This document shows, piece after piece, positions 17,908 through 45,711 of a stretch of DNA of 64,000 bases. Each line of letters begins with the position of its first letter. The stretch's first letter is position 1. Under the pieces are notes generated by a model, which was given only the letters and a program-made list of their open reading frames with translations, searched no databases and was not told where the DNA came from. Origin of the DNA: a phage; sequence record PZ445449.1. The stretch is one strand, 5' to 3'. The translations under genes and the position numbers were made by a program.

Positions 17908-19389
17908 TTACTTAGCGTACTCGATTAATTCCACAGTTTTCCCAAAGCTCGGGATATAATTTTTATTATACCCCTCAGTGAGGACCCATAGAGTATCGTA
18001 CTTTTTCCACTTGTTGTCAACAACCTTTTGTTCAAAGTTATGCTCAAAGTATAGGTCGGTCAGGACGATGACATCTTTTGCATTCGGTATGTTGGCATCC
18101 AGATACTCGAACACGCAAGCAGCTGTTGTGCCCCATGTTGAGTGGACCTCATAGTTGATCATCTCGTCTATGTTGCCGCGAGTGTATACTTTAACCTCTC
18201 CAACCTCAGTTGACCAACAGAACATTGTAACCTTAAACTCTTTATACAGATTGCACAATCCGGTGATTTCATTGAACATTTTCTTTAAAGTTCTTTGAGA
18301 GATCGAGCCAGAAACGTCTAAAGCCACCACAATATCTATAGTGTTTTCCGGATTACGACCAGGAACAATAACGTGCTGGTTCTTGTTTATAGCCCCAACT
18401 TTTCGCATTGTGCTGGTCAAAGACCCAGATCGGCGACCAGGTTTTCTGTAGGTCAGTTCGGCCTTTCTTTTAGACAACATGCGTTGCTTAATGATGTCTA
18501 TATAGTTGATTACAGGCTTACCTCTGTTCTTGACAAACTCACGCACCGCCTCAGGGCAACGGCCTCCGGACGCTTGCATTGCTGCCTCCAGCATATCGCC
18601 AGAGTCCTGCATGGCCTGATCTTTATCAGATTGGCTGATTACAGGTTGTGGCTGATCATACCCCATAGCCTTTCCAAGATTATCACTGGTGCCACCATTC
18701 CCACTCATGTGATCATCGGTTTGTCGCTTATCACCTTGAGAGTTCTCACCTTTACCGCTCTTACTTTTACCGTTATTCTGATCTCTTTGCTTATCAAGAA
18801 CTGCATAAACGTTCTCAGCAATCCATCCATGAAACTTCATGTCGCAGTAGCAGCTGGCTAAGAAGCCAAAAGGCTTACCTTTCACGAACGTAGTGCTTTT
18901 CCCCTTCGGGAAGAAAACACAAGGAGGTTTGCTAAAGTCAACCACAAGGCCTGTGTTGATAACGTGATCACAAGCAATATTGAACAGTTCCGGCTCAAAG
19001 CTTTTACCACGGACTAGGTGATCACAGATAATATGCCCCACCTCATGTGACAGAAGGAAGGCCACCTCTTTCACAGATTTTGGGGAATAGAAAACTTCAG
19101 CCATCTCAAACTGCTCGTCAGTTAGAGAAGCCTTAAGAATAGCCTTGCGTTCATCAGCCAATCCCATAATGAACTCAGGACTGTAATAGATGCGTTTATG
19201 GTCGGTTGCCATGGTGGAGCACCATGTGTGGTTTTCTACGAACTGCAACCCTGACAGTAGTGTGCCATAAAACGGCAGCTTTTCAAGGAGATACATACGT
19301 GCAGCCTGCAACATTCTCAGGGCATCATCTTTTTGTGAGGCAATGATTTCTGAACTTCTGCTATCCATTAAAACTCCAGAAGTGGCCAA
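17908..19389 (-). CDS. vWA-domain protein with N-terminal HExxH metallopeptidase-like domain
   Basis: 493 aa; HEVGHIICDH (HExxH) in N-terminal half; VVALDVSGSIS (DxSxS MIDAS motif) in C-terminal half. Confidence 0.7.
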   Translation of the reverse strand: MATSGVLMDSRSSEIIASQKDDALRMLQAARMYLLEKLPFYGTLLSGLQFVENHTWCSTMATDHKRIYYSPEFIMGLADERKAILKASLTDEQFEMAEVFYSPKSVKEVAFLLSHEVGHIICDHLVRGKSFEPELFNIACDHVINTGLVVDFSKPPCVFFPKGKSTTFVKGKPFGFLASCYCDMKFHGWIAENVYAVLDKQRDQNNGKSKSGKGENSQGDKRQTDDHMSGNGGTSDNLGKAMGYDQPQPVISQSDKDQAMQDSGDMLEAAMQASGGRCPEAVREFVKNRGKPVINYIDIIKQRMLSKRKAELTYRKPGRRSGSLTSTMRKVGAINKNQHVIVPGRNPENTIDIVVALDVSGSISQRTLKKMFNEITGLCNLYKEFKVTMFCWSTEVGEVKVYTRGNIDEMINYEVHSTWGTTAACVFEYLDANIPNAKDVIVLTDLYFEHNFEQKVVDNKWKKYDTLWVLTEGYNKNYIPSFGKTVELIEYAK

Positions 19390-19401: not shown

Positions 19402-20442
19402 TTATTTAACGTGTTTGAAAATACCTGCCAACTCGGTCATTGTCATGCGGGTGGTCTTCATAAGATCTGTCATAGCTTTCTCCATAATTGGAGATACTAC
19501 CATAAAGTTTCCTTTAGTGAAACCTTTATTCCAGTCGGTCACCAACAGGGGTTTAAGTCCAGCTCCAAGACGTTCACCAGTTAAAGCACAGCATTTGCGA
19601 ATATACGAACTCTTAAATTGGCTGAACGACAGATCAACTTTCATACCTGCATCGTAGAACGTTTGACAATAGAAAGTGTAAGCCTTAGCAATCTCAACAT
19701 CATCAGGCAGTGCAGGAACCTCTTCTGCAATCCCCTCTTCGACCTCCTGAGGCTCTTTTTCCTCTTCAGAGTTCTGTTCTTCAACTTCTTCTGTCACAGT
19801 CTCGTTCACGATGTCTGAAATGTGTTTGTTGGCTGCACGATCAGCCATGAAATTTTTAAAGTCCTGCATTGGTGACATATCTTCTTCCTCTTCGTCAAAT
19901 AGTGCTAGTTTATCCTCTTCCGTTCCATATTGCAAGATGAAATCTTCAAAAGTATAATCACCTTTCAATTTCTCCATACGCTCTTCGCTCAGGTGGAGCA
20001 TCATCTGCTGGACAATTTTTCGATCAGTTTCGTCTTTAATCAGGATTGCAGTCTTTTTATCTACCAGACAGTCTTTCAGAGCATTGCACCTCAACCCTAC
20101 CACACAACAATTGTCAATTGCGTAAGGGCCTTCATCATCTATACGCTCCAAAGATGGGTAGAAAGGATTCCCCAGCCCGTTTTCATCTGTGTGCATGTCA
20201 AAAGGTATAAGGGTATAGTCGCATACTCCATCTCCTAAAAGTTTTTTACCAAATAGGAGGTATTCTTCCCATGACAGGTCGAACTCTATATCTCGTTTCC
20301 GTGCGTTATTCTGTTTGCGTCTATATTTTTTGAGCAAGCGCTCTAACTCTTCTGGTGTATAATATTTTTCAAGATTCATGAGTCGTCTCTCGTGCTCTGT
20401 AAGTGAAGAAATCGTATCAATTGTCTCAACAGATGTCAACAT
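19402..20442 (-). CDS. hypothetical protein with internally duplicated domain and acidic linker
   Basis: ATG at 20442 (track start 20445 is TTG); N- and C-terminal segments resemble each other; central EEEED/EEVEEQNSEEEKE stretch. Confidence 0.5.
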   Translation of the reverse strand: MLTSVETIDTISSLTEHERRLMNLEKYYTPEELERLLKKYRRKQNNARKRDIEFDLSWEEYLLFGKKLLGDGVCDYTLIPFDMHTDENGLGNPFYPSLERIDDEGPYAIDNCCVVGLRCNALKDCLVDKKTAILIKDETDRKIVQQMMLHLSEERMEKLKGDYTFEDFILQYGTEEDKLALFDEEEEDMSPMQDFKNFMADRAANKHISDIVNETVTEEVEEQNSEEEKEPQEVEEGIAEEVPALPDDVEIAKAYTFYCQTFYDAGMKVDLSFSQFKSSYIRKCCALTGERLGAGLKPLLVTDWNKGFTKGNFMVVSPIMEKAMTDLMKTTRMTMTELAGIFKHVK

Positions 20443-20452
20443 CAAAAACGTG

Positions 20453-20521: not shown

Positions 20522-21421
20522 ATGGCAAATCTTAACAGTTTTAGTACGCGGTGGAAACAGGACATAACAACCAATCTTTCAGCTGGGGACATCCTTTCTG
20601 CAATTTACGAGGCTTTAGATGATAAAGCTACTTCAAAAGCGGTTTGTACCAACCCGCTAATTCCTGTAGTGATGAAGGTTATTGAGCGTAGATTGGTATC
20701 TGGGTCTGATAAGTGGACATATTTAGATAATGAAGGACACACCTATTCCAATGGGTACGTCGATATAAAAGTAGAATACGCGGTATCATACCGCCGGAGC
20801 GGTTCTGTAACTTTCAACTTCTCTGGAGGTTTTCGATCTCTGGCTACCTCACCTTTTGTTTCCTCAGAGGAGAAGTATGAGCTGCCATTTCTTTGGATGA
20901 TGGCTAACGCGACAGGAAAAACCCCCGTTAGCATCCGAGTAAAATACAACTACAACGGATCTAGTAAGATCTATGCCGAAAGTGTCTCAGCAAGTTTTTA
21001 TTTTGTGATGGGAGATGGAATCCTCAAACATATAAAGATGTGCGATATGCATGATGTTATAAATGAAGTGACTGATAAGAATGTTCTAGTGAAAGACCTC
21101 AACAATTTTTATACACCCGGAGACTATTACGTCAGCCGTCCACTGTGCATCTTTAATGCCGCACACCCTCTAGGTGAGTATTTGATCGCCAATAGCGATA
21201 TTGCCAATAACCGATTCGAGGTAGCAAGAGTTCAGAATGAGGTATTGACATCTTGCAAGAGTGGTGATAAGTTTACCGAAGAAGAGATGAGTGTTTTAGA
21301 AATGATGGGATATAAGTGTAGCCTTTGGGTAGATGAGGTGTTTAATGATTGCATCTATGGACAGGATATTTACCCATTAAAGAAGTATACTGATACAAGT
21401 TTAATTTATGCGAGGGTTTGA
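20522..21421 (+). CDS. hypothetical protein
   Basis: 299-aa ORF with AGGAG RBS, first gene after divergent promoter. Confidence 0.55.
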   Translation: MANLNSFSTRWKQDITTNLSAGDILSAIYEALDDKATSKAVCTNPLIPVVMKVIERRLVSGSDKWTYLDNEGHTYSNGYVDIKVEYAVSYRRSGSVTFNFSGGFRSLATSPFVSSEEKYELPFLWMMANATGKTPVSIRVKYNYNGSSKIYAESVSASFYFVMGDGILKHIKMCDMHDVINEVTDKNVLVKDLNNFYTPGDYYVSRPLCIFNAAHPLGEYLIANSDIANNRFEVARVQNEVLTSCKSGDKFTEEEMSVLEMMGYKCSLWVDEVFNDCIYGQDIYPLKKYTDTSLIYARV

Positions 21422-21696
21422 CTATGATGAAGGCATGTGGTAATGTATATTACGTCGGTGAACATGTTCAGGCAGACAGTGTGTGGAAATCTACTAAGTC
21501 CACCACTGACGATGCCTTTCTGAGTGGACTATGTTTCCCCAATCCGGGAGACATCCTCCCTCATCCTGGAGATTTTGTTGTCAACAAGATGGACGGTTAT
21601 ACCGTGTGCCTGATGGTTGAAAAAATCTTTTTAGACACTAGACACAATCACCGTCTTGTGTTAAAATTTCAAGAATGTAAAATGACAATTGCCTAA
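21418..21696 (+). CDS. hypothetical protein
   Basis: 92-aa ORF overlapping upstream stop. Confidence 0.45.
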   Translation: MTMMKACGNVYYVGEHVQADSVWKSTKSTTDDAFLSGLCFPNPGDILPHPGDFVVNKMDGYTVCLMVEKIFLDTRHNHRLVLKFQECKMTIA

Positions 21697-21709
21697 GGAG
21701 ACCTTACCG

Positions 21710-22066
21710 ATGTCTAAAGTTACTTATCGTGCAGCTATTTACTGCAATGAACACCCAATCAACAATGATGGTCACTGCCTTTTTAAAGAAAATCAGTTGG
21801 GATGTATTGTCCTCCCTGATGAAGGGAAAGGTTATCTGATTGCATTGACAGGGTTTGAACCTGAAGCTCTGGAAGCCAATCTGGACTACCTGGTAGAAGA
21901 GGGTGCTGCAGACCTGGTTGCCAATGGCTTCTCCATAAGCCTTGACGAAGTGGAGCGCTTCATGGGCAATTACCGTGTAGTGCGTGAGTTTACTATCGAG
22001 GTGGAAACTCCAGAGTGGGGTAGCCATGAAACTAATGCCGAAGAAAAAGAAGAGGAGGTAGAATAA
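21710..22066 (+). CDS. hypothetical acidic protein
   Basis: ATG at 21710 preceded by AAGGAG; acidic C-terminus (EEKEEEVE). Confidence 0.5.
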   Translation: MSKVTYRAAIYCNEHPINNDGHCLFKENQLGCIVLPDEGKGYLIALTGFEPEALEANLDYLVEEGAADLVANGFSISLDEVERFMGNYRVVREFTIEVETPEWGSHETNAEEKEEEVE

Positions 22067-41337: not shown

Positions 41338-41703
41338 ATGGAACAAATGAACGATCAAGCGTCGGTTGCGATGAACGAGCAAGAACAACCTCAAGAATTT
41401 TTCTTAGGGTTAAGTAAAGATCAAGTGTCTCTTCTGCTAGTGCTTTCTTCTTTCATGGGAAGACTTCAGGAGCTCACACAACAGCCAGAGGCTGAACAAT
41501 TATTTCAGGCTCTGCGTGAAGAAGAAAAATATCGTCGTTTGGACTATGCCTTAGGTTGGGTAGCTCAACAACGAGATATGCTGATGGCCCTCTCTGGGAC
41601 CACAAGTTTTGCAATGGGCCTGTTGGCTCAAGTTCAGGACAAATTAATTCAAGCAGGGTTTGCACACACGGCAAACACTAACGAAGAACAAGGAGACAAA
41701 TAA
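41338..41703 (+). CDS. hypothetical protein
   Basis: 121 aa; GGAGA RBS. Confidence 0.5.
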   Translation: MEQMNDQASVAMNEQEQPQEFFLGLSKDQVSLLLVLSSFMGRLQELTQQPEAEQLFQALREEEKYRRLDYALGWVAQQRDMLMALSGTTSFAMGLLAQVQDKLIQAGFAHTANTNEEQGDK

Positions 41704-42929
41704 TGAGCGTTATTCAACAATTCGCTAACCCGATGAATCCGCGTGAAACTGTTTTACTAGCTCACGGCATGATTAAACGTGTCAGCATCAAGCCTATCAA
41801 AGGTGCTGATCCTACAACAGGTATTAAAACCACTGTGTGGCAAGGTAAGAAAATTGAATCCAGCCACACCATCTCTTTACTGATTTCTGAACTGGATTCC
41901 TCTGATAACCTACTTCAAGGTGGTGAAGAAGTTTGGATCAGCATGGGCGATAAGCTGCTTAAACCGGGTCATCAAGACTCCGTCTCTGTTAAAATTGATG
42001 ACAAGTGGGAAACCGTAACGCCAGGATGGATCGTAAATATCCCTCTGAAGGCAAACGAGCATAACGGTAAGACCTATTACAAAGGCTCACTGGCTAAGAT
42101 GGTCAAACTGGGTGCAGGAGAGGCTCCAGCAGCGACTCAGCAGCAAAAACAGCAACAAGGTGCACAATCACAAGGTCAGAAGCAGAAACCCCAGCAGAAT
42201 GCCAATCAGGACGTTTTACGCATCTATGGCGATGTGACTCAGATTGTTGGCAACGTGGTTACTGTTAATGACCACAAGATTGGCGAAGGTGCTATGGTTG
42301 TCACTGATGAGCAGCTTAAAGACCTGGTGGTAGGTGGTCGTGTTGCAGCCATTGTTGACAAAGACACCGGAAACATTATCAGTGGTTTCAAAGCCTATCC
42401 ACCTAAGGCAGAGAACGGCACTCAAGGCTCTGGTGGCAAGCGTAAATCCTCTTACGACCCTATTGGTGTAGAGACGGGGCATAGCATCAATGCTTTGCAG
42501 ATCATCCTGGATCGCGGGTTTAAGGTGGATGACCCACTAAGCGTGGCTAAAACACTGCACGTAGTCACCATTGAGCTTAAGAAAGAGTATGCTCAAGCCA
42601 CCAACCGAACTGAAGATGAAGTAGGTGCCAGTGTCGGTAATGCGGTGTTGAACGCTTGTCGCCGTATTGACAAGAAAACGAAAGTTGATGATTTTGCAGC
42701 GGCAATTACTGCAGAAGCAAAAGATGTCTTGACTAATCTTGCTGAACCGTTGTATGATTGGATCAAGAACGGTGCGGGAGCCACTGACCATCAAGAACCT
42801 CAAGCTGCCAAACAGGAAGCTGCTCCGCAGCAAAACACTGTAGACGCTCCTCCTGTAAATGACGAGGAAGATGACCCGATGGATCAGAATCCAGCACAGT
42901 ATGAGTTCGATGACTCGATCCCTTTCTGA
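41703..42929 (+). CDS. single-stranded-DNA-binding-like protein with SSB-type acidic C-terminal tail
   Basis: 408 aa; C-terminus ...EEDDPMDQNPAQYEFDDSIPF resembles the E. coli SSB tip (DFDDDIPF); Q-rich linker QQQKQQQGAQSQGQKQKPQQ; lies next to replication genes. Confidence 0.5.
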   Translation: MSVIQQFANPMNPRETVLLAHGMIKRVSIKPIKGADPTTGIKTTVWQGKKIESSHTISLLISELDSSDNLLQGGEEVWISMGDKLLKPGHQDSVSVKIDDKWETVTPGWIVNIPLKANEHNGKTYYKGSLAKMVKLGAGEAPAATQQQKQQQGAQSQGQKQKPQQNANQDVLRIYGDVTQIVGNVVTVNDHKIGEGAMVVTDEQLKDLVVGGRVAAIVDKDTGNIISGFKAYPPKAENGTQGSGGKRKSSYDPIGVETGHSINALQIILDRGFKVDDPLSVAKTLHVVTIELKKEYAQATNRTEDEVGASVGNAVLNACRRIDKKTKVDDFAAAITAEAKDVLTNLAEPLYDWIKNGAGATDHQEPQAAKQEAAPQQNTVDAPPVNDEEDDPMDQNPAQYEFDDSIPF

Positions 42930-42937
42930 GGTCAGTT

Positions 42938-43516
42938 ATGAAATGCAAACGTTGTGGAGAGGACAAGGAGGCCTCCGACTTCTACACCAGTAACAAATCA
43001 ACGTGCAAAGAGTGTTGCAAGAAGGCCAGCAGGGAGGCTGACCAATTTGCTAAAGACTCTTCAGAAAAAGGTGTAATACGCGTGCTGTACAAGGCTCAAA
43101 AGTGCAACAGCAAGCAAAGAGGTCACCCGCCTCCGACTTACACCAAAAAAGAGTTTAAGGAGTGGCTATACCTAAACGGTTACAAAGAGTTGTATGATCA
43201 ATGGGTAGCCAGCGGATACGACAAAAGGAAAAAGCCTTCTTGTGACAGGATAGATGATTTCAAAGGGTACTCTTTTGATAATATCCGTTTAACGACTTGG
43301 GGAGAAAATAAAGACAAGCAGACAGAGGATATTCTGTTGCATAGAAGCACCAGCGGTAGACGGTGCAAAAATGTAAGGAGGTTGGACATGAATGGTAACG
43401 TTCTTAAAGAATGGGTATCTCACAACTCTTGTAGCAGAGAAACCGGAATATATATTGGTTACTACATTCATGAAAAAATTCCAGCTCCAGATGGATACTT
43501 ATACGAATACTTTTAA
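42938..43516 (+). CDS. zinc-finger protein with degenerate HNH-like segment
   Basis: 192 aa; N-terminal CKRC...CKECC; segment CDRIDDFKGYSFDNIRLTTWGENK resembles HNH-type core. Confidence 0.35.
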   Translation: MKCKRCGEDKEASDFYTSNKSTCKECCKKASREADQFAKDSSEKGVIRVLYKAQKCNSKQRGHPPPTYTKKEFKEWLYLNGYKELYDQWVASGYDKRKKPSCDRIDDFKGYSFDNIRLTTWGENKDKQTEDILLHRSTSGRRCKNVRRLDMNGNVLKEWVSHNSCSRETGIYIGYYIHEKIPAPDGYLYEYF

Positions 43517-43530
43517 CACATAACTAACAT

Positions 43531-43560
43531 AGCCCTGCCCGAAAGGGTGGGGCATTTTTG
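43531..43560 (+). terminator. intrinsic terminator with GAAA tetraloop (copy 2 of 2)
   Basis: Same GCCCTGCCC-gaaa-GGGTGGGGC + T-run as at 31307-31335. Confidence 0.6.
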
Positions 43561-43578: not shown

Positions 43579-43995
43579 ATGACATTAGAAGATATCATTG
43601 TTAAACCTGAGAACTATGACCAATACAACCTGTCAACTCAATCTGTAGACCTTGGATGCGCCACGGTCAGTGCGTGGCTGGTTAACGGAAAAGAGCTTGA
43701 CGAGTGCCTGGAAGCACACATGTCGGTGAATAAATTTCTTGATGAAAATACCCACTGGCTAGAGGGTGCAGGAGTATATGCTTCATGGTTGGAGAGTATG
43801 GGATTCGACTACCAATCTGAAGAGGGGTGGTGGAGCTATTTAGCTATCTGCCCAGAGACGCTGCAATGCTTCATGAAATATTCTGAAGATTTGGAGTACC
43901 GGGCGGTGGTTGATAGTGCTATTGCCCGTTATAGCCGTAAACCTTTTTCCCACGACATTAAAACTGTGGAAGAATTTGTTGAAGTTTTCTGTTGA
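43579..43995 (+). CDS. hypothetical protein
   Basis: 138 aa; AAGGAGA RBS. Confidence 0.5.
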   Translation: MTLEDIIVKPENYDQYNLSTQSVDLGCATVSAWLVNGKELDECLEAHMSVNKFLDENTHWLEGAGVYASWLESMGFDYQSEEGWWSYLAICPETLQCFMKYSEDLEYRAVVDSAIARYSRKPFSHDIKTVEEFVEVFC

Positions 43996-44020
43996 CACAA
44001 GTTGAAAGGTGTGCAATTAT
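43992..44020 (+). promoter_or_regulatory. sigma70-type promoter
   Basis: TTGACA - 17 nt - AATTAT. Confidence 0.45.
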
Positions 44021-44091: not shown

Positions 44092-44289
44092 ATGATTTAT
44101 CGAATCCGTGTAAGAGAAGATGCACCAGGCTGTTACTTTGACTGGCGTGGGTGGTGGTTTCTCCACCCGATGGATGGACTCACAGATAGAATGCTGGATG
44201 CTGCCCTTTATACAGATACCGACATAGAATATAATCTCTATCTGAAGGACGGTATAGATAACGGTCTATTTGAAGCAATTCCTGTGTAA
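44092..44289 (+). CDS. hypothetical small protein
   Basis: 65 aa; AGGAGG RBS. Confidence 0.45.
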   Translation: MIYRIRVREDAPGCYFDWRGWWFLHPMDGLTDRMLDAALYTDTDIEYNLYLKDGIDNGLFEAIPV

Positions 44290-44357
44290 GAGACTGTGAT
44301 AGCTATGTTTTATGATCTTCCTGTAGCACCACCACCTGTTGAACCCGGAGAACTAAG

Positions 44358-44783
44358 ATGATCTATGAAATGCCAAAACTGATTCGTGACGATGCCCAAA
44401 ACGCTCACACCATTATTATGGGCAAACGCATGGATATTATTTGTCATAAAGATTTCTGGGAAGGAAGTTACTTCACAGAGTATTTTGGTAAACTGGACAA
44501 TGGTCTGCTGATCCAGTTCTACACCGATGCGGAAAACAACATTCACTGGGAGTTCGAAACTGAAGATATCCATAAACTTTTCACCTTCCTCGGTATCAAG
44601 GTTGAGGCTAAGTTTGAAGAAGGCGAGTGCGACGATTGTGGATTCTATGAGGTAACAGATTTCTATCTTCCAAGTGGCAAGAACCTTTACTATGAGAGTC
44701 ACTTCGGAAACACCAACATGCCTCAAAGCTGGGAAGAATTTTTCAGTATCGTAGAAGAGGAGCTGGCATACCGTGATTATTGA
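44358..44783 (+). CDS. hypothetical protein
   Basis: 141 aa; GGAGAA RBS. Confidence 0.5.
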   Translation: MIYEMPKLIRDDAQNAHTIIMGKRMDIICHKDFWEGSYFTEYFGKLDNGLLIQFYTDAENNIHWEFETEDIHKLFTFLGIKVEAKFEEGECDDCGFYEVTDFYLPSGKNLYYESHFGNTNMPQSWEEFFSIVEEELAYRDY

Positions 44784-45231
44784 TACTGTAAAGGGAGATT
44801 TAATCTCCCTTTTTAAGAGCGGTGCTGGTCACCTAATCCACGGTTGTAACTGCTTCCACACAATGGGTAAGGGCATAGCAAAACAGATTGCCCGTGAGTT
44901 TCCTCAAGCATTGTCAGCCGACAAAGAGACCAGACACGGTTGCCTAAGTAAACTGGGTGCGTTCTCCCGATGGGAGCACTTATCTCCGAGAGGTATTGTC
45001 TACGGAATCAATCTGTATACTCAGTTCTACCCAGGGCCTAATGCTGAATATTTCTCAATCCTGAAAGGCTTTGAGCTAGTCAATGAGGTATTCAGTGGAT
45101 CGACTTTACCATTCTACATCCCTAAGATCGGGTGCGGCATAGGCGGTTTGAAGTGGGAGCACGTAGAGGACGTTATTAACCTCGCCACTTTTGATATAGA
45201 TATTATCGTGGTGGAGTACAAAGAGTGTTGA
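44773..45231 (+). CDS. macro-domain-like protein (ADP-ribose binding / ADP-ribosyl hydrolase fold)
   Basis: 152 aa; VKGDLI ... HLIHGCNC ... GKGIAKQIAREF follows macro-domain order (GDIT ... NAAN ... GGGVxGAIHRAAG); GTG start overlapping upstream gene. Confidence 0.45.
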   Translation: MIIDTVKGDLISLFKSGAGHLIHGCNCFHTMGKGIAKQIAREFPQALSADKETRHGCLSKLGAFSRWEHLSPRGIVYGINLYTQFYPGPNAEYFSILKGFELVNEVFSGSTLPFYIPKIGCGIGGLKWEHVEDVINLATFDIDIIVVEYKEC

Positions 45232-45257
45232 CAGCTGACTTTTGAGATGGTATAGTC
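45229..45257 (+). promoter_or_regulatory. sigma70-type promoter
   Basis: TTGACA - 17 nt - TATAGT. Confidence 0.5.
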
Positions 45258-45287: not shown

Positions 45288-45488
45288 ATGGAGACTAAAA
45301 TCTTAATTCTGGCTGTGATAGATACGACCGAAGGGGCCGTGTTCGAATCTGCAGGAGGGTATTTCTACCTGCCCTACGGAAAAATAACTTCCGAACCGAG
45401 TAAAGATTCAATCCTTAAAGTGTTCCCTTGTGCTTTCTGGCTGGAGATTCTGGTAGAAGATTGCAGAGGATTGGGGAGAGAATTATGA
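45288..45488 (+). CDS. hypothetical small protein
   Basis: 66 aa; GAGGGAG RBS. Confidence 0.45.
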   Translation: METKILILAVIDTTEGAVFESAGGYFYLPYGKITSEPSKDSILKVFPCAFWLEILVEDCRGLGREL

Positions 45489-45679
45489 GAAACAAGAAAG
45501 AGCTTTACTCTGGCGAGTGGATCAACGATCAACAGGTCGGAGAGGTAACCTGCTTCCGGTGTTTTACTCGGTACAATCTTAAAACTGCACCAAAAAGTGT
45601 TCCAAAGACTGACGGTTATTACATAAAAGAACCTCATTGCCCAAAATGTAAATGCCGATTGTACTGGAGCAATCTATAA
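45485..45679 (+). CDS. small zinc-ribbon-like protein
   Basis: ATG 45485 overlapping upstream stop (ATGA); CFRC ... CPKCKC. Confidence 0.45.
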   Translation: MRNKKELYSGEWINDQQVGEVTCFRCFTRYNLKTAPKSVPKTDGYYIKEPHCPKCKCRLYWSNL

Positions 45680-45683
45680 GAGG

Positions 45684-45711
45684 TTGACATCTGAAAACTG
45701 CAGTGTATAGT
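45684..45711 (+). promoter_or_regulatory. sigma70-type promoter
   Basis: TTGACA - 16 nt - TATAGT. Confidence 0.5.

Follow-up and report, generated by a model that had tools for sequence, protein, structure and literature searches.

A stand-alone macrodomain gene in the early region of a Vequintavirus is a putative counterpart of the T4 anti-DarT factor Tk.4/AdfM

What kind of protein is encoded by a short open reading frame (ORF) in the replication/early region of a phage genome, and on which ADP-ribose-containing substrate might it act? The question arose from a 64,000-nucleotide stretch of phage DNA (sequence record PZ445449.1; hereafter the window), for which an initial annotation, made from the letters alone, had proposed a macro-domain-like protein. 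An ORF for a stand-alone protein of 152 amino acids (aa) was located exactly where it had been placed, and all three motifs quoted for it are present in the product; the gene and its product are referred to as the macro gene and the macro protein (Table 1). Sequence comparison assigns the window to Vequintavirus, the rV5-like myoviruses of E. coli. Over 3 kb around the macro gene, identity to the closest relative, AlexBoehm (BASEL Bas56), is 97.8%, and 115 records span at least 80% of this region at 90-99% identity. Orthologues are bas56_0089 of AlexBoehm, labelled "hypothetical protein", and ORF194 of JES2013; other records carry the labels "macro domain protein", "macro domain-containing protein", "O-acetyl-ADP-ribose deacetylase" and "phosphatase". 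Since several GenBank records already bear macrodomain-type labels for this exact protein, its domain identity was already public. Genes of this class are already on record, and what the T4 homologue, Tk.4, does has been reported; the contribution made here, a modest one, is to place the Vequintavirus gene in the T4-type AdfM lineage.

The macro protein matches the Pfam Macro model (PF01661) with 28.4 bits (gathering score 22; E=1.7e-6), in agreement with the profile comparison that the initial annotation had suggested, and PHROG 335 (phrog_335) with E=7.5e-60. A single-sequence search of the PDB returned the macrodomain of M. tuberculosis DarG (5m3i; 3e-7), yeast Poa1p, Bt_1257, SCO6735 and human TARG1. 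A profile of 85 homologues, with identities to the query as low as 29%, improved the same matches to E=2e-18 to 1e-14; most of these homologues have a precomputed PF01661 match. The AlphaFold2 model obtained from the same alignment (predicted local distance difference test, pLDDT, 96.8; predicted template modelling score, pTM, 0.91) is a single domain with the three-layer alpha/beta/alpha arrangement and central mixed beta-sheet of the macro superfamily, and not a non-macro fold. Its top Foldseek match in the PDB is TARG1 (E=4e-10; template modelling scores, TM, 0.78/0.84).

The nearest structural and sequence neighbours are members of the TARG1/DarG class, clearly apart from the MacroD, PARG and viral X-domain types, and we assign the macro protein, on its sequence and modelled structure, to the TARG1/DarG/Poa1p (ALC1-like) class of macrodomains. 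These neighbours ruled out the MacroD type, with its GDIT/NAAN/GGGV signature. The initial annotation had drawn the motif equivalences correctly, but had taken them from a template of that MacroD type.

The ADP-ribose-contacting residues, on whose conservation the initial annotation had made its proposal depend, are in place: N26, G32/G34/A36 and G120/G122/G124-125 show little or no variation among the 85 homologues. Throughout this alignment G24, N26, G34, A36, N80, Q84 and G120 do not vary, while H23, C27, Y82, T83, G88, P117, I119, G122 and G125 are conserved in at least 90% of the sequences (G32 in 78 of the 85). Q84 (85/85) is aligned to the catalytic Lys of TARG1 (ITK84), DarG (K80; FPTK in MtbDarG) and PhiKZ gp104 (FPTK), and also to the essential Gln85 of SCO6735; the NMIGQ motif of Bt_1257 is aligned to NLYTQ. 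The position of TARG1 Asp125 is occupied by G124 (Gly in 57 family members, Ala in 27). Thus, the canonical catalytic residues of the TARG1 class are absent. N26 is equivalent to Asn27 of SCO6735 and Asn23 of PhiKZ gp104, and the phage family, as judged from the alignment, carries an Asn/Gln pair (N26/Q84) of the SCO6735 type. The loop following Q84 (QFYPGPNAEY) contains no Lys and shows a 6-residue gap relative to Bt_1257 in the family profile alignment. The replacement of the canonical Lys by Gln, together with the short loop, in the T4-type AdfM lineage is a modest new recognition of this study.

The homologue with a reported phenotype is Tk.4 of T4, with which the macro protein shares 39% identity (E=4e-41; residues 1-150 aligned to 1-152); identity to Tk.4 of RB3 is 44%. 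In the HIDEN-SEQ preprint, depletion on a host expressing DarTG2 was significant for only one T4 gene, tk.4, and a clean knock-out of tk.4 rendered T4 sensitive to DarTG2, for which the gene was renamed adfM (anti-DarT factor Macrodomain) (bioRxiv 10.1101/2025.11.20.689424). The reversal of host ADP-ribosylation-based immunity, suggested for the macro protein in the initial annotation, has thus been demonstrated genetically for this homologue. The gene is otherwise non-essential in T4, with insertions at 45 of 46 TA sites (HIDEN-SEQ). Both proteins are stand-alone phage macrodomains of about 155 aa that belong to PHROG 335, are non-essential in the laboratory, and have (i) identical HGCNCFHTMG and NLYTQ(F)xPGPN motifs, with Gln at the catalytic position, (ii) the Asn/Gln pair, (iii) the short lysine-less loop and (iv) a DarG-like second loop. 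We therefore read the macro gene, at the level of sequence, as the Vequintavirus counterpart of Tk.4/AdfM and a member of the T4-type AdfM lineage. The two phages differ in family (Straboviridae for T4, Vequintavirinae here), and protection against DarTG2 has been demonstrated for T4 only. There is also no synteny: tk.4 adjoins and follows vs, whereas the macro gene follows an unrelated 141-aa gene, which was rejected as a Vs homologue (E=30). In Bas54 the positional orthologue, bas54_0092 (459 nt, with an 11-nt overlap with a 426-nt upstream gene), assigned by synteny and length and not by sequence, is non-essential and tolerated insertions at 31 of 31 TA sites.

A tblastn search detected homologues in 2,728 of 50,697 phage records (approximately 5%), T-even phages included. 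The best structural matches in BFVD include "tk.4" of Acinetobacter phage 133 (TM 0.89). The top viral match in this database is A0A481YV05 (TM 0.93, 39% identity), a Marseillevirus "SNF2 subfamily protein" of 302 aa that is matched in its macro part. This protein of a giant eukaryotic virus is closer to the macro protein than are most phage homologues, which hints at a cross-kingdom exchange of this macrodomain subtype.

DarT2 ADP-ribosylates thymidine in single-stranded DNA, thereby blocking phage replication, and the DarG macrodomain reverses this modification. DarG of DarTG2 (M. tuberculosis, T. aquaticus; 5m3i, 5m31) uses the catalytic Lys K80, where the macro protein has Gln; with about 330 aa in total, it extends into a C-terminal domain that binds DarT, and its gene lies beside darT; neither feature occurs in the macro protein or its locus. 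The second loop of the macro protein (IGCGIGGLKW) is most like that of DarG (LGVGNGGLDW), which is also without the TARG1-type Asp125. The DarG equivalog model NF048014 of NCBIfam scored 47.7 bits against a cutoff of 250, covering only positions 2-143 of 338, and the PADLOC DarG model was matched only at positions 3-141 of 329; the macro protein ends (residue 152) where the toxin-binding domain of DarG would start. Identity with the DarG antitoxin was consequently rejected, given the missing C-terminal domain, the missing darT and a score well under the equivalog cutoff. No ART (ADP-ribosyltransferase) or other toxin domain was found in the ten flanking ORFs (Pfam, PHROGs). The lack of a toxin-binding domain and of a nearby ART gene characterizes the macro protein as an orphan eraser.

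Another phage-encoded orphan of DarG type is PhiKZ gp104, also named AdfM, which removes DarT2-installed ADP-ribose from DNA in vitro and neutralises DarT2 toxicity, and whose activity is lowered by the N23A substitution (PMC13309987). It resembles the macro protein in its important conserved Asn and its acidic character (pI 5.1 vs 6.3); the macro protein is only mildly acidic. Net charge proved uninformative as a test for a DNA substrate, since gp104, proven on DNA, is itself acidic. In contrast to the macro protein, gp104 of this chimallivirus is Lys-type (FPTK, like DarG) and is imported into the phage nucleus; identity between the two is 21-23%. By sequence, gp104 and T4 Tk.4 represent different lineages of the same class. 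The name AdfM was given independently by two groups to these proteins, one with Lys and the other with Gln, whose identity is about 21-23% if the macro protein is taken as a proxy.

Among cellular proteins, SCO6735 of Streptomyces coelicolor cleaves thymidine-linked ADP-ribose; its Gln85 is essential, is stabilised by the loop-1 Asn, and has been proposed to place the distal ribose for attack by water (PMC9411070). SCO6735 and Bt_1257 share with the macro protein the Gln at the catalytic-Lys position and the loop-1 Asn. They differ in being cellular, DNA-damage-regulated proteins with 22-24% identity to it, and in a mobile loop that is longer by about 5 residues and carries Lys89/Lys94, which serve to bind DNA; this extension is missing from the macro protein. 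The remaining relatives are eukaryotic housekeeping enzymes: human TARG1/OARD1, whose Lys84/Asp125 dyad is replaced by Gln and Gly in the macro protein, and yeast Poa1p, which acts on ADP-ribose-1''-phosphate.

The macro gene is maintained, as indicated by dN/dS (nonsynonymous to synonymous substitution rate) ratios of 0.09-0.19 among three Vequintavirus orthologues, a sign of purifying selection. Disrupted alleles were also found in the database, on contigs of 13-135 kb: (i) a fusion in which residues 1-53 encoded by the upstream 141-aa gene are joined, at a shared QFY microhomology, to the C-terminal half of the macro protein (P0017), (ii) an internal deletion between two WEH repeats (P0020) and (iii) two frameshifts (P0038, P0063). 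These naturally inactivated alleles suggest that the gene is lost repeatedly in settings that do not require it, and maintenance combined with disruption is the pattern expected of a conditionally useful anti-defence gene. Base composition gave no signal of recent transfer (45.5% GC in the macro gene, 43.9% in the window). Besides these alleles, Escherichia phage 241Ecol014PP (OR062943.1) carries the full 152-codon ORF intact at 21272-21730; its apparent N-terminal truncation was dismissed as an annotation artefact, the CDS annotated as "macro domain-containing protein" (21362-21730) being 30 codons short because the GTG start was missed.

It is probable that the macro protein is an early ADP-ribosyl glycohydrolase, which would strip DarT2-installed ADP-ribose from thymidines of single-stranded phage DNA and so restore replication, by water chemistry at Asn26/Gln84. 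That it is a catalytically competent ADP-ribose-processing macrodomain is very probable. In the proposed course of events, the macro gene would be transcribed early by the host RNA polymerase, together with two small upstream genes, within the replication-gene arm. Host DarT2, released on infection, would ADP-ribosylate thymidines of single-stranded phage DNA and block replication. The macrodomain would bind the ADP-ribose moiety via its two Gly-rich loops and hydrolyse the thymine-ribose bond without a lysine nucleophile of the DarG/TARG1 type; Gln84, held by Asn26, would orient the distal ribose so that water can attack it, in line with the proposal for SCO6735. Replication would then resume, and the phage would be resistant to DarTG2. 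With neither a toxin-binding domain nor a partner toxin, the protein would be a pure eraser, dispensable where the defence is missing. The ORF, fold, class, conservation, homology to Tk.4, lack of a DarG C-terminal domain and of an adjacent darT, purifying selection and early-region context come from the present analysis, and the Tk.4 knock-out phenotype and the biochemistry of SCO6735 and PhiKZ gp104 from the literature; the substrate and phenotype of the macro protein are what we infer.

Several points weigh against this proposal. A published DarTG2 phenotype for Vequintavirinae was sought in the literature and none was found, and for T4 the evidence, taken from a preprint, is purely genetic (bioRxiv 10.1101/2025.11.20.689424). 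Direct biochemistry of DNA de-ADP-ribosylation is that of PhiKZ gp104, Lys-type and only 21% identical, and of SCO6735, whose DNA-binding-aiding Lys mobile loop the macro protein lacks. The H23/N26/T30 loop matches, residue for residue, that of the ADP-ribose-1''-phosphate phosphatase Poa1p, and Iyer et al. argued from a systematic survey that soluble derivatives of ADP-ribose are what most phage macrodomains act on (PMC9503650). Members of the class also act on protein-Glu-ADP-ribose (PMC9411070) and RNA-uracil-ADP-ribose (PMC13036486), so that DNA may not be the only or the main substrate.

Such breadth of substrates enters into one alternative, to which we attach a low probability: the T4/Vequintavirus-type AdfM family, acidic and with its invariant Asn26/Gln84 and a short loop devoid of lysine, may represent a third, separate mechanism in the TARG1/DarG class, being neither Lys-type (DarG, PhiKZ gp104) nor long-loop Gln-type (SCO6735). 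Its substrates would perhaps be broader than thymidine-ADP-ribose on DNA, e.g. uracil-ADP-ribose on RNA or soluble ADP-ribose-derived signals. If this is true, a single small early protein would undo what several ADP-ribosyltransferase- or NAD-based defences produce.

It is unlikely that the macro protein is a hydrolase of small molecules (ADP-ribose-1''-phosphate, O-acetyl-ADP-ribose, or a signal of immunity or a toxin derived from ADP-ribose, for example a TIR/Thoeris product), which would detoxify or silence NAD-derived metabolites and repair no DNA. The Poa1p-like loop and the survey of Iyer et al. speak for this activity. Position 23, aligned to His23 of Poa1p, is His in 84 of the 85 homologues and position 30 is Thr in 58 of 85 (Ser30 in Poa1p); the position of Phe152 is occupied by Gly. 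At the position of Gln84, Poa1p presumably has Ser. An invariant Gln is, however, the hallmark of the thymidine-ADP-ribose hydrolase SCO6735 (PMC9411070), and the T4 homologue has a specific DarTG2 phenotype. Moreover, no NAD-salvage, Nudix, NADAR, sirtuin or ART gene was detected with Pfam among the 56 ORFs scanned in the window, which represents about half of the genome. The database labels (RefSeq "A1pp phosphatase") are domain-based and not experimental; the RefSeq "phosphatase" is a domain-era guess. The handling of NAD metabolites, named as another option in the initial annotation, is less likely than reversal of ADP-ribosylation-based immunity.

Rather improbable, too, is removal of mono-ADP-ribose from protein Glu/Asp residues to which a host ART toxin or the phage's own ART has attached it, or from RNA uracil, which would restore transcription or translation and not replication. 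TARG1 and SCO6735 do strip protein mono-ADP-ribosylation (PMC9411070), TARG1, DarG and SCO6735 reverse uracil-ADP-ribosylation on RNA (PMC13036486), and the short lysine-poor mobile loop is like that of TARG1/DarG and unlike the DNA-clamping loop of SCO6735. On the other hand, the Pfam scan of the 56 window ORFs detected no phage ART, the mRNA-targeting CmdT modification is described as irreversible, and the T4 phenotype is DarTG2-specific. We know of no E. coli defence that makes Glu-ADP-ribose or uracil-ADP-ribose. A non-catalytic ADP-ribose reader or regulator, either a YmdB-like "RNase III inhibitor", as some database names read, or a sponge for an ADP-ribose-containing signal, would accommodate the loss of both TARG1 dyad residues (K84 to Gln, D125 to Gly), but is very improbable.

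The GTG start of the macro gene is secure, because the protein aligns from residue 1 with all homologues, T4 Tk.4 included. Its overlap with the upstream gene suggests translational coupling, and an identical overlapping pair of 426/459-nt genes is annotated in phages JES2013 and Bas54. The macro gene lies downstream of rIIA/rIIB and of genes for a helicase, a methyltransferase, a primase-helicase and a DNA polymerase, in a long run of small genes; its ten neighbours all belong to PHROGs of unknown function. With such neighbours and no synteny with T4, the context provides no functional clue beyond placement in the early arm.

Table 1. Position of the macro gene, its motifs and the surrounding features in the window
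Feature	Position	Strand	Description
Macro gene, 152-aa stand-alone macrodomain protein	44773..45231	+	GTG start, TGA stop
Shine-Dalgarno GAGGAG	44757..44762	+	10 nt 5' of the GTG, within the 3' end of the upstream gene; read from the sequence
Upstream gene, 141 aa	44358..44783	+	function unknown, phrog_8157; 11-nt overlap with the macro gene
Motif H23-G-C-N26-C27	44839..44853	+	N26 (44848-44850) invariant
Loop 1, M31-G-K-G-I-A36	44863..44880	+	Gly-rich, phosphate-binding; G34 and A36 invariant, G32 78/85
Motif N80-L-Y-T-Q84	45010..45024	+	Q84 (CAG, 45022-45024) invariant, at catalytic-Lys position
Loop 2, P117-K-I-G-C-G-I-G-G-L-K-W128	45121..45156	+	Gly-rich, diphosphate/distal-ribose; resembles DarG's PPLGVGNGGLDW
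Intrinsic-terminator-like hairpin	43532..43553	+	9 pairs, 7 G-C, then T-run; closes endonuclease VII-like gene
Candidate sigma-70 promoter	43992..44020	+	TTGACA-17-AATTAT, extended-10 TG; nearest + candidate upstream of run 44092-45231
Near-consensus sigma-70 promoter	45228..45256	+	TTGACA-17-TATAGT, 11/12, extended-10 TG; -35 overlaps macro stop codon
Second near-consensus sigma-70 promoter	45684..45711	+	TTGACA-16/17-TATAGT
408-aa ORF	41703..42929	+	Gln-rich low-complexity middle
192-aa Cys-rich endonuclease VII/HNH-like gene	42938..43516	+	phrog_1035, E=2.7e-32
83-aa ORF	45428..45679	+	Phage_zn_bind_2 domain (PF23903, E=1.6e-22)
492-aa protein gene	17908..19389	-	DUF2201_N (putative metallopeptidase) and VWA-like DUF2201 domain
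346-aa ORF	19402..20445	-	adjoins DUF2201 gene; no Pfam match

The hairpin upstream of the macro gene is likely to be the 5' limit of its transcription unit. We infer that the candidate promoter downstream of this hairpin may drive the three-gene run ending with the macro gene, while the near-consensus promoter at the macro stop codon would start the following unit. In the whole window, TTGACA-16/17-TATAGT was found twice against 0.03 expected, and TTGACA-N16-18-TAnnnT 25 times (2.7 expected), for the most part on the + strand at 38-58 kb. Such a promoter cluster fits transcription by the host polymerase from many short units, with presumably early timing.

Inspection of the surrounding genes yielded further observations. 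The 408-aa ORF ends with ...YEFDDSIPF, mimicking the acidic DDDIPF tip of the bacterial single-stranded DNA-binding protein (SSB). It has no Pfam or PDB sequence match, belongs to phrog_4477 ("unknown function") and is hypothetical in relatives; its positional orthologue in Bas54, bas54_0087, is Essential by HIDEN-SEQ (8 of 57 TA sites hit). The product is probably the phage's own SSB, or else a hub for proteins that interact with SSB. The region's strongest terminator-like hairpin lies directly 3' of the endonuclease VII/HNH-like gene, whose Bas54 counterpart is a non-essential "putative homing endonuclease". For the 83-aa ORF, residue 20 is where the PHROG match starts, and the product annotated in relatives has 64 aa, which makes an internal ATG the probable start and the TTG overlapping the preceding gene an unlikely one. 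Elsewhere in the window, the 492-aa protein is encoded next to the 346-aa ORF; proteins of its DUF2201/VWA type are usually paired with MoxR-type ATPases. According to HIDEN-SEQ, a MoxR ATPase gene of Bas54, bas54_0063, is needed against the predicted defence system DS-28. Finally, 16 GenBank records of "Campylobacter phage A1xx" (MG065644, MG065690, MG065662 and others; host Campylobacter jejuni) contain this region at 95-96% identity to E. coli Vequintavirus, which looks like a wrong host assignment or contaminated phage stocks.

The macro gene is an ordinary member of a documented gene class, and its earlier interpretation was correct. Two database matters are clarified here: the RefSeq "phosphatase" label, and the shared name AdfM, which covers both the Lys-type PhiKZ gp104 and the Gln-type T4 Tk.4 and constitutes a nomenclature trap for annotation pipelines. 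Vequintavirinae are considered for therapy and for biocontrol of O157, and almost all of their early genes are unannotated. To these rV5-like phages the macro gene adds a likely anti-DarTG2 factor.
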